This document shows positions 4,309 to 4,384 of a DNA stretch of 12,204 bases, one piece after another. The position numbers and the translations under genes are program-made. A model generated the notes under the pieces. That model made no database searches, was not told where the DNA came from, and saw only the letters and a list, made by a program, of their open reading frames with translations. Origin of the DNA: a virus (lineage: Duplodnaviria; Heunggongvirae; Uroviricota; Caudoviricetes); the IMG/VR virus record IMGVR_UViG_2667528155_000014; one strand, given 5' to 3'. How positions within the stretch are numbered: the stretch's first letter is position 1; every line of letters starts with the position of its first letter.

Positions 4309-4384
4309 CCGCCATTAGCTCATCAGGATAGAGCATCAGCCTTCTAGGCTGATGATGCGGGTTCGATTCCCGCTGCCCGCTCCA
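4309..4384 (+). tRNA. tRNA-Arg-like (anticodon UCU), possibly degenerate: 5' acceptor strand does not pair
   Basis: D-arm GCTC/GAGC, anticodon stem TCAGC/GCTGA with loop CTTCTAG, T-arm GCGGG-TTCGATT-CCCGC and 3' TGCCCGC-T-CCA are canonical, but the 5' acceptor strand CCGCCAT is not complementary to TGCCCGC. Confidence 0.5.

Follow-up and report, generated by a model that had tools for sequence, protein, structure and literature searches.

A probable tRNA-Arg/tRNA-Gly hybrid pseudogene, apparently left by a deletion within a tRNA array, in the late region of a lambdoid prophage

The window, by which we mean the whole stretch of 12,204 nucleotides that was analysed, contains the late region of a lambdoid prophage. 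The order is DUF1367, YbcO, the Q-like gene (1505-2044), an STnc100 match (2657-2834), DoxX (3403-3837) and the tRNAs, followed by the holin and, further on, by TerS and TerL. The lambdoid late region, with its tRNA array, starts at the Q-like gene. The presence of tRNA genes downstream of Q is standard in lambdoid phages, and the lambdoid late arrays are thought to supply rare-codon tRNAs. Table 1 summarizes the features from the Q-like gene to the holin gene.

Table 1. Features of the late region around the tRNA array, in window coordinates.
Feature	Position	Strand	Evidence or content
Q-like late antiterminator (DUF1133 / Phage_antitermQ)	1505..2044	+	Pfam PF06576 288 bits, PF06530 29.8 bits
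tRNA-Ile2 (CAU), intact, at the head of the array	4229..4305	+	ARAGORN; Rfam; 77-nt type of Ile-X-Thr-Gly arrays
AAA spacer separating the Ile gene from the chimera	4306..4308	+	Sequence read directly
Arg-derived 5' segment: acceptor 5' strand CCGCCAT, D arm, position 26	4309..4335	+	
Crossover interval TCAGCCTTC, tRNA positions 27-35	4336..4344	+	Identical in the argN-type and Gly parents
Gly-derived 3' segment	4345..4384	+	Anticodon position 36, 3' anticodon stem, 4-nt variable loop, T arm, TGCCCGC, discriminator T, CCA
Second deletion, 57 nt, directly after the CCA	4384..4385	+	Alignment with L082, HK639, MB06232 and L047
Downstream block, homologous to the DNA after intact tRNA-Gly	4385..4512	+	85-95% identity to L047, L056, L004, L082 and HK639, collinear
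Holin gene, downstream edge of the tRNA slot	4641..4985	+	Pfam PF05106 127.9 bits; 86.7% identical to the L047 holin, collinear

Several other elements accompany the array. The STnc100 match (RF02076, 66.2 bits) lies about 600 nt downstream of the Q-like gene and may be the late-promoter leader and terminator RNA, the target of Q. STnc100 matches were also obtained in the late regions of the prophages of KC-Dl-1 (129 bits) and MB06232 and in that of HK639. The match precedes the tRNAs in the window and KC-Dl-1 and follows them in MB06232 and HK639. The DoxX gene encodes a membrane protein of that family and, sitting between the STnc100 match and the tRNAs, is likely cargo, as is a gene of 302 aa (6434-7342, minus strand; PF28206, Vpar_1526) between the lysis and terminase genes.

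The first gene of the array matched Rfam with 71.2 bits over model positions 1-71, and its CCA occupies 4303-4305. ARAGORN labelled this CAU tRNA as Met; its E. coli orthologues are tRNA-Ile according to PGAP, and the gene differs at one nucleotide from the Ile gene of the array in E. coli CFSAN029787. The second unit (4309-4384) begins after a gap of only three nucleotides, as the original prediction had stated, and has the anticodon UCU (4343-4345). Its RF00005 match covers 4316-4373 (model positions 8-63) with 44.8 bits, against a gathering score of 29, and spans a D arm, an anticodon arm with a 7-nt loop, and a T arm (GTTCGAWTC); the acceptor stem is outside the match. The 5' strand CCGCCAT (4309-4315) and the 3' strand TGCCCGC (4374-4380) form two of the seven possible pairs, C2-G71 and G3-C70. 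Random 7-mers are expected to form about 2.6 pairs when G-U is allowed (7 x 6/16), so that the acceptor of this unit pairs at the chance level. The non-pairing 5' acceptor strand described in that prediction was confirmed by both the pair count and the limits of the Rfam match, and the unit lacks the 7-bp acceptor stem (positions 1-7 / 66-72) of a functional canonical tRNA.

Dedicated gene finding did not detect 4309-4384 as a full-length tRNA. ARAGORN, which had been proposed as a check, called the Ile gene of the window and not the second unit; it called the Ile gene alone in L007 and L006 as well, and PGAP annotated tRNA-Ile alone at the equivalent E. coli loci. No alternative fold with a paired acceptor stem was recovered, either by RNAfold on the unit with or without flanks, or by scanning 4150-4345 for 7-mers that pair with TGCCCGC at six or more of seven positions. 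The scan resulted in two sites, one at 4183, upstream of the Ile gene, and one at 4253, within it, and neither is plausible as an acceptor partner. In the minimum-energy fold, GCCCGC of the orphan 3' strand is paired with GCGGGU, a strand of the T stem, and RNAfold favours an anticodon hairpin of 8 bp with a 3-nt loop together with a mispaired T region. This fold was marginally more stable than those of shuffled sequences (z-score -2.1). An assembly artefact was ruled out by the presence of the same locus in independent assemblies (the IMG/VR contig and four others).

The two parts of the second unit resemble different tRNA genes. The 5' part (tRNA positions 1-26, 4309-4335) was identical at 27 of 27 positions to argN (UCG) of phage PhiR49_2, at 25 of 27 to Stx2a argN, and at 12 of 28 to tRNA-Gly. 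The 3' part (tRNA position 36 to CCA, 4345-4384) matched the tRNA-Gly(UCC) of E. coli prophages at 38 of 40 positions, the two mismatches being the T at 4345 and the G at 4347; its identity was 25/41 to argN and the CFSAN029787 Arg genes, and 23/41 to argO. Between these parts, TCAGCCTTC (4336-4344) is present in full (9/9) both in Stx2a argN and in the tRNA-Gly of CFSAN029787. Within each parent the acceptor strands pair completely: CCGCCAT with ATGGCGG in argN of PhiR49_2 (7/7), and GCGGGCA with TGCCCGC in the Gly parent (7/7), whose sequence we take to be that of E. coli chromosomal glyT. The strand GCGGGCA, which the original prediction had expected at the 5' end, is precisely what the Gly parent has there.

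Homology to Arg tRNA genes does not extend over the whole of 4309-4384. The 3' half and the downstream flank are those of a glyT-type tRNA-Gly(UCC); the 5' GCGGGCA and the Gly D arm of that gene are missing, and the D arm is Arg-type. Judged by this pattern of identities, 4309-4384 is a chimera of a phage argN-type tRNA-Arg front and a phage glyT-type tRNA-Gly(UCC) back, with its junction in the shared 9-nt interval. The arms still look like those of a tRNA because the Arg and Gly parts are joined in register, and the acceptor strands cannot pair because they are drawn from different genes. The unit had been described as a canonical tRNA-Arg(UCU) from the D arm to the CCA. The cloverleaf shape stands; the ancestry does not, being Gly from position 36 on, and the suggested comparison with argN and argO found argN identity in the 5' part and no Arg gene behind the 3' part.

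The same prophage was found in at least five other records. Over about 12 kb, three of them (L014, L015 and L016) show no difference from the window (100% identity) and L013 has an identity of 99.9%; that of L007 is 99.985%, its single mismatch falling outside the tRNA region. Within the 172 nt of 4229-4400, L013 and the window differ at 4345 only, which is C in L013 and T in the window, and the anticodon of L013 is UCC. The Gly parent has C at position 36; therefore, the ancestral chimera carried UCC. On this comparison, the UCU of the window is a later C-to-T transition at position 36 (4345), not an inherited Arg anticodon, and all representative-genome matches to the 5' half of the unit were argN genes with the anticodon UCG. 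The label tRNA-Arg(UCU) holds for the 26 to 35 nucleotides at the 5' end, which are Arg-derived, and fails for the anticodon, a secondary change of the Gly UCC. The G at 4347 (G38) is A in all parents and, with U33-A37 and C32-G38 paired, permits a perfect 8-bp hairpin with a 3-nt loop. We treat the A38-to-G change as drift after inactivation; chance or selection are both conceivable.

A scan for the chimera pattern in IMG/VR resulted in one match, corresponding to window 14-6759 with 99.985% identity and one mismatch, and the scans of GTDB representative genomes and of metagenome contigs gave none. In the 5,426 complete E. coli genomes, the best-matching place accounted for 5% of the window, and the phage matches were patchy (Salmonella Gifsy-type lysis genes and a Klebsiella-phage terminase). 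The Yersinia phages YeP1-3 gave a one-piece BLAST match and were rejected as carriers of the chimera, as their Ile gene is immediately followed by a normal, intact tRNA-Gly. The window copy of the prophage is probably defective because its portal gene (region 11115-12204) is truncated by an IS3-family element, whereas L013 has an intact portal gene of 441 aa. Decay in this copy thus extends beyond the tRNA array, in keeping with a dead tRNA unit. The truncation occurs after 285 codons, at about 11972, the Pfam Phage_portal match ends at profile position 224 of 321, and the element, with its rve domain on the minus strand (11976-12182), is up to 96% identical to ISEc31-like copies.

Intact arrays occupy the same slot elsewhere. 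E. coli CFSAN029787 has Ile(CAU)-Arg(UCU)-Thr(UGU)-Gly(UCC) between the antiterminator Q and holin genes, and Ile-X-Thr-Gly arrays, with Arg, Lys or a non-canonical unit as X, are common and were found in 103 IMG/VR contigs. About 1,524 of the 5,426 complete E. coli genomes matched at least 80% of the Ile-plus-chimera query; among the matches listed, the alignment was split in two, the pieces together extending over about 313 nt, compared with 156-159 nt in the window. The window array lies in the same Q-to-holin slot and is collinear with the intact arrays. For L047, window 4229-4334 corresponds to 374-477, 4336-4388 to 634-686, 4385-4462 to 740-817, and the holin (4640-4985) to 1485-1829. 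In BLAST alignments to intact arrays, the blocks are interrupted at 4334/4336, and the Arg and Gly parent genes are about 158 nt apart in those arrays.

Slot 2 of these arrays is variable. About 27 of the 103 viral arrays, as well as E. coli MB06232, have a slot-2 gene with a perfect acceptor stem (CCGCCAY/RTGGCGG), preserved D and T arms, and an anticodon loop of 5-6 nt that varies in sequence (CCAGGT, TAAAT, TTAAT, CTTGGT, TTTAT, CCAGAT). Examples are L032 1719-1792, L019 5537-5609, L038 1868-1940, L061 1469-1542, L082 160-237, L107 13210-13287 and L004 2580-2653. ARAGORN assigned 2-base anticodons or odd identities to the short-loop genes, and the MB06232 gene has no PGAP annotation and no Rfam match at the gathering score. 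Elsewhere the same scaffold carries UUU (Lys, 76 arrays), UCG (argN) or UCU. The short-loop genes could represent decay or a non-decoding tRNA-like RNA. In the last slot, the arrays of E. coli RMDEC332 and VL46 are annotated as Ile-Arg-Thr-Val in place of Ile-Arg-Thr-Gly, suggesting that the gene there changed its anticodon or was replaced.

Compared with the intact arrays, the window shows two deletions, one of about 157 nt from the Arg to the Gly anticodon arm and one of 57 nt after the CCA. Two similar short sequences, CGCTCCAGTTT and CGACCTAGTTTT, border the 57-nt segment in relatives. In E. coli prophages, HK639 and viral contigs (L082 395-451, L005 2812-2865, L002 1546-1602), the phage tRNA-Gly is immediately followed on its 3' side by a conserved hairpin of about 45 nt, which is absent from the window through the 57-nt deletion. 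The hairpin has an outer stem, CUUUUCGGUC/GACUGAAAAG or CUUUCAGUC/GACUGAAAG, an inner GGG(N3-4)CCC hairpin, and a GAUGA/GGAGUGA internal loop. Its RNAfold z-scores range from -2.0 to -3.2, and it matched no Rfam family at the gathering score.

We consider it highly probable that 4309-4384 is a non-functional hybrid tRNA pseudogene that arose from the deletion of about 157 nt within the array, that is, by ordinary recombinational decay. An ancestral lambdoid prophage would have carried tandem genes for Ile(CAU), an argN-type Arg, Thr(UGU) and Gly(UCC) between the Q antiterminator and the holin. The deletion would have fused the 5' part of Arg in register to the 3' part of Gly, taking out the 3' half of Arg, the entire Thr gene, and the 5' half of Gly. 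The likely mechanism is RecA-dependent homeologous recombination or replication slippage (slipped-strand mispairing) at the 9-nt TCAGCCTTC of the anticodon arms. Later changes would comprise A38-to-G, C36-to-T in the window sublineage, which turned UCC into UCU by accident, and the separate 57-nt deletion. Of the origins first offered for the unit, a decayed pseudo-tRNA was right as to a dead gene and wrong as to a decaying tRNA-Arg, the last 40 nt being 38/40 Gly. A recombination junction was right in outcome; the event was probably a deletion between neighbouring tRNA genes and not an integrase or att event at a tRNA 3' half. An unusual processed substrate found no support.

Since it has no acceptor stem, the chimera RNA should not serve as a substrate for RNase P, CCA-end maturation or aminoacylation. 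In E. coli, the separation of polycistronic tRNA transcripts reportedly depends on RNase P. The upstream tRNA-Ile would lose the RNase P site 3 nt downstream that frees its 3' trailer, and its maturation might be slowed because of this loss.

The chimera might instead have come from recombination between co-resident phages, one with an Ile-argN-argO array of the Stx-phage type and one with X-Thr-Gly, at the 9-mer shared by the anticodon arms. Such a route agrees with the complete identity of the 5' half to argN of an Ile-argN-argO phage. The exact matches to the 5' half in representative genomes were argN(UCG) genes in Ile-argN-argO arrays only. Among the 103 viral Ile-X-Thr-Gly arrays, none with the exact slot-2 sequence of the window was found, and TCAGCCTTC was present in slot 2 of none (0/103); we infer, rather than observe, the exact parent array. 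However, the window Ile gene is of the 77-nt Ile-X-Thr-Gly type and not of the 76-nt Stx ileZ type. In addition, L082-like arrays already unite the same Ile type, an A-rich spacer (AA, where the window has AAA), the slot-2 start CCGCCATTAGCTCATC, the Gly gene, and the same downstream block. Because these elements occur together there, a single deletion within the array explains everything, and the inter-phage route is less parsimonious; we regard it as unlikely.

A second Arg::Gly fusion was found in E. coli E7-1N7, where the DUF1367-YbcO-DUF1133 order is as in the window. The unit after its Ile gene has Arg(UCU)-type sequence up to and including the 3' anticodon stem and G46 (TCAACC TTCTAAG TTGATGGT), and Gly-type sequence from the T stem on. 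The junction is at least 8 nt 3' of that in the window, and a different Arg parent was involved. A further eight E. coli genomes (KC-Dl-1 type) matched the E7-1N7 chimera and its flanks in one piece with 90.6% identity, giving nine E. coli genomes with this fusion. In the KC-Dl-1 copy, which provided the details of decay, the junction is that of E7-1N7 and the unit has decayed further (D-stem TGGCTC, T loop GGGGCGA, 3' strand TGTCCGC), with an Rfam score below the threshold. The intact parents match Rfam at positions 1-71 (Arg 56.4 bits, Gly 64.9 bits); the matches of both chimeras cover positions 8-63 only (44.8 and 46.7 bits), and ARAGORN called neither. From its shifted junction and different Arg parent, the E7-1N7 unit appears to be a second fusion of the same two slots, independent of that in the window. 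Recurrent fusion fits the sequences because the longest identities between Arg and Gly are in the anticodon arm and the T loop. That the same gene pair was fused at least twice could also hint at selection, beyond shared homology; the further decay in KC-Dl-1 argues against selection on the fusion product.

Another broken Gly gene was seen in HK639 (L002 1469-1544), where a tRNA-Asn is followed by a tRNA-Gly remnant without an ARAGORN or Rfam call. The 3' part of this remnant, from CTTCCAAGCTG to the CCA, is 100% identical to the intact Gly gene. Its 5' part has strongly diverged, with GCATCTG for GCGGGCA and TCTGG as the 5' anticodon-stem strand, so that the identity to Gly breaks sharply at the anticodon loop in this case too.

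It is very unlikely, in our judgement, that late-region arrays repeatedly generate and keep non-decoding tRNA-like RNAs and that the window chimera, with its A38G hairpin, was selected and is not debris. If this were true, the candidates would be the two Arg::Gly fusions and the slot-2 genes with 5-6-nt anticodon loops, and their RNAs could act as decoys against defence nucleases that target tRNAs, or could provide a scaffold for the processing of the adjacent tRNA-Ile.

We hold it to be highly improbable that the unit is a functional acceptor-less tRNA-like RNA, whether it would serve tRNA-Ile as a processing or stability element, act as a decoy for an enzyme that targets tRNAs, or yield a small RNA. 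The unit retains three of the four cloverleaf arms, but an in-register crossover keeps the arms automatically. The perfect 8-bp hairpin made by A38G would also suit such an RNA; however, the minimum-energy fold as a whole differs only marginally from those of shuffled sequences. Arg::Gly fusions have arisen at least twice and the locus is in a Q-dependent late transcript, yet in the KC-Dl-1 lineage the T arm and the acceptor strand have decayed beyond an Rfam match. The window-type chimera is known solely from prophage copies that are 99.9-100% identical, in which conservation is uninformative, and its pattern is absent from GTDB representative genomes and metagenome contigs.

Two further explanations have next to no probability. 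A tRNA-Arg(UCU) whose 5' acceptor strand decayed by point mutations would agree with the UCU anticodon and the Arg-like D arm, but it is refuted by the parent-specific pattern of identities: the 5' strand, identical to argN, is the intact part, the 3' 40 nt are Gly (38/40, against 25/41 for Arg) and followed by the flank of a Gly gene, and the sibling L013 has the anticodon UCC. A site-specific integration (att) junction, at which a mobile element inserted and replaced the tRNA 3' half, would suit the anticodon and T loops, which are reportedly integrase crossover sites in tRNA genes, but it is contradicted by the collinearity with intact arrays, in which the halves stem from two genes about 158 nt apart and both flanks are late-region DNA of the same prophage type, by the lack of an integrase among the 15 window ORFs in Pfam (the sole rve domain is that of the IS3 transposase), and by a tRNA 3' segment that is single-copy within the window.

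With 4309-4384 read as a hybrid pseudogene, the unit should not be counted in annotation as a phage-supplied tRNA-Arg(UCU), and the prophage would supply tRNA-Ile(CAU) only. The locus would offer a clean, dated case in which tandem tRNAs for different amino acids recombine at short conserved stretches and prophage arrays shrink. It also serves as a warning that local-mode covariance-model matches above the gathering score (here, 44.8 bits) can be fusion pseudogenes.

Arrays of this kind are known from several phages. SfI, Sf6, ST64T and P21 have an Asn-Thr tRNA pair downstream of Q (PMC3636060). The lambdoid late arrays of the ileZ-argN-argO type lie in the same slot as the window array, from the Q antiterminator to the holin or stx, and their Ile(CAU) gene and argN scaffold are homologous to those of the window. 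The ileZ-argN-argO array is reportedly present in Stx phages such as 933W. In contrast to these arrays, the window keeps one intact tRNA (Ile), and the second unit appears to be an Arg::Gly remnant of the four-gene Ile-X-Thr-Gly array.

Hybrids between tandem paralogues are known as well, and unequal crossing-over occurs at E. coli tyrT-tyrV. For tandem esaG immunity genes, deletions between the copies are described (PMC9484751). These hybrids and the window unit are alike in that an in-register crossover between similar neighbouring genes deletes the interval and leaves a chimera, whereas the two tRNAs that were partners in the window belong to different amino acids, and what they have in common is 9 nt of the anticodon arm and 7 nt of the T loop. 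Because the partners share only such short stretches, the product in the window would be dead and not a working hybrid. In Rickettsia peacockii, a chimeric tRNA gene bounds the tra cluster (PMC2791219), and, as in the window, the tRNA halves are of different origin. The R. peacockii type is integrase-mediated and flanks an integrated element, whereas the window has no insert and no integrase, and both parents would belong to the same array. Paralogue chimeras and chimeric tRNA genes at junctions being already known, the window unit is a new instance of a recombinational tRNA pseudogene.
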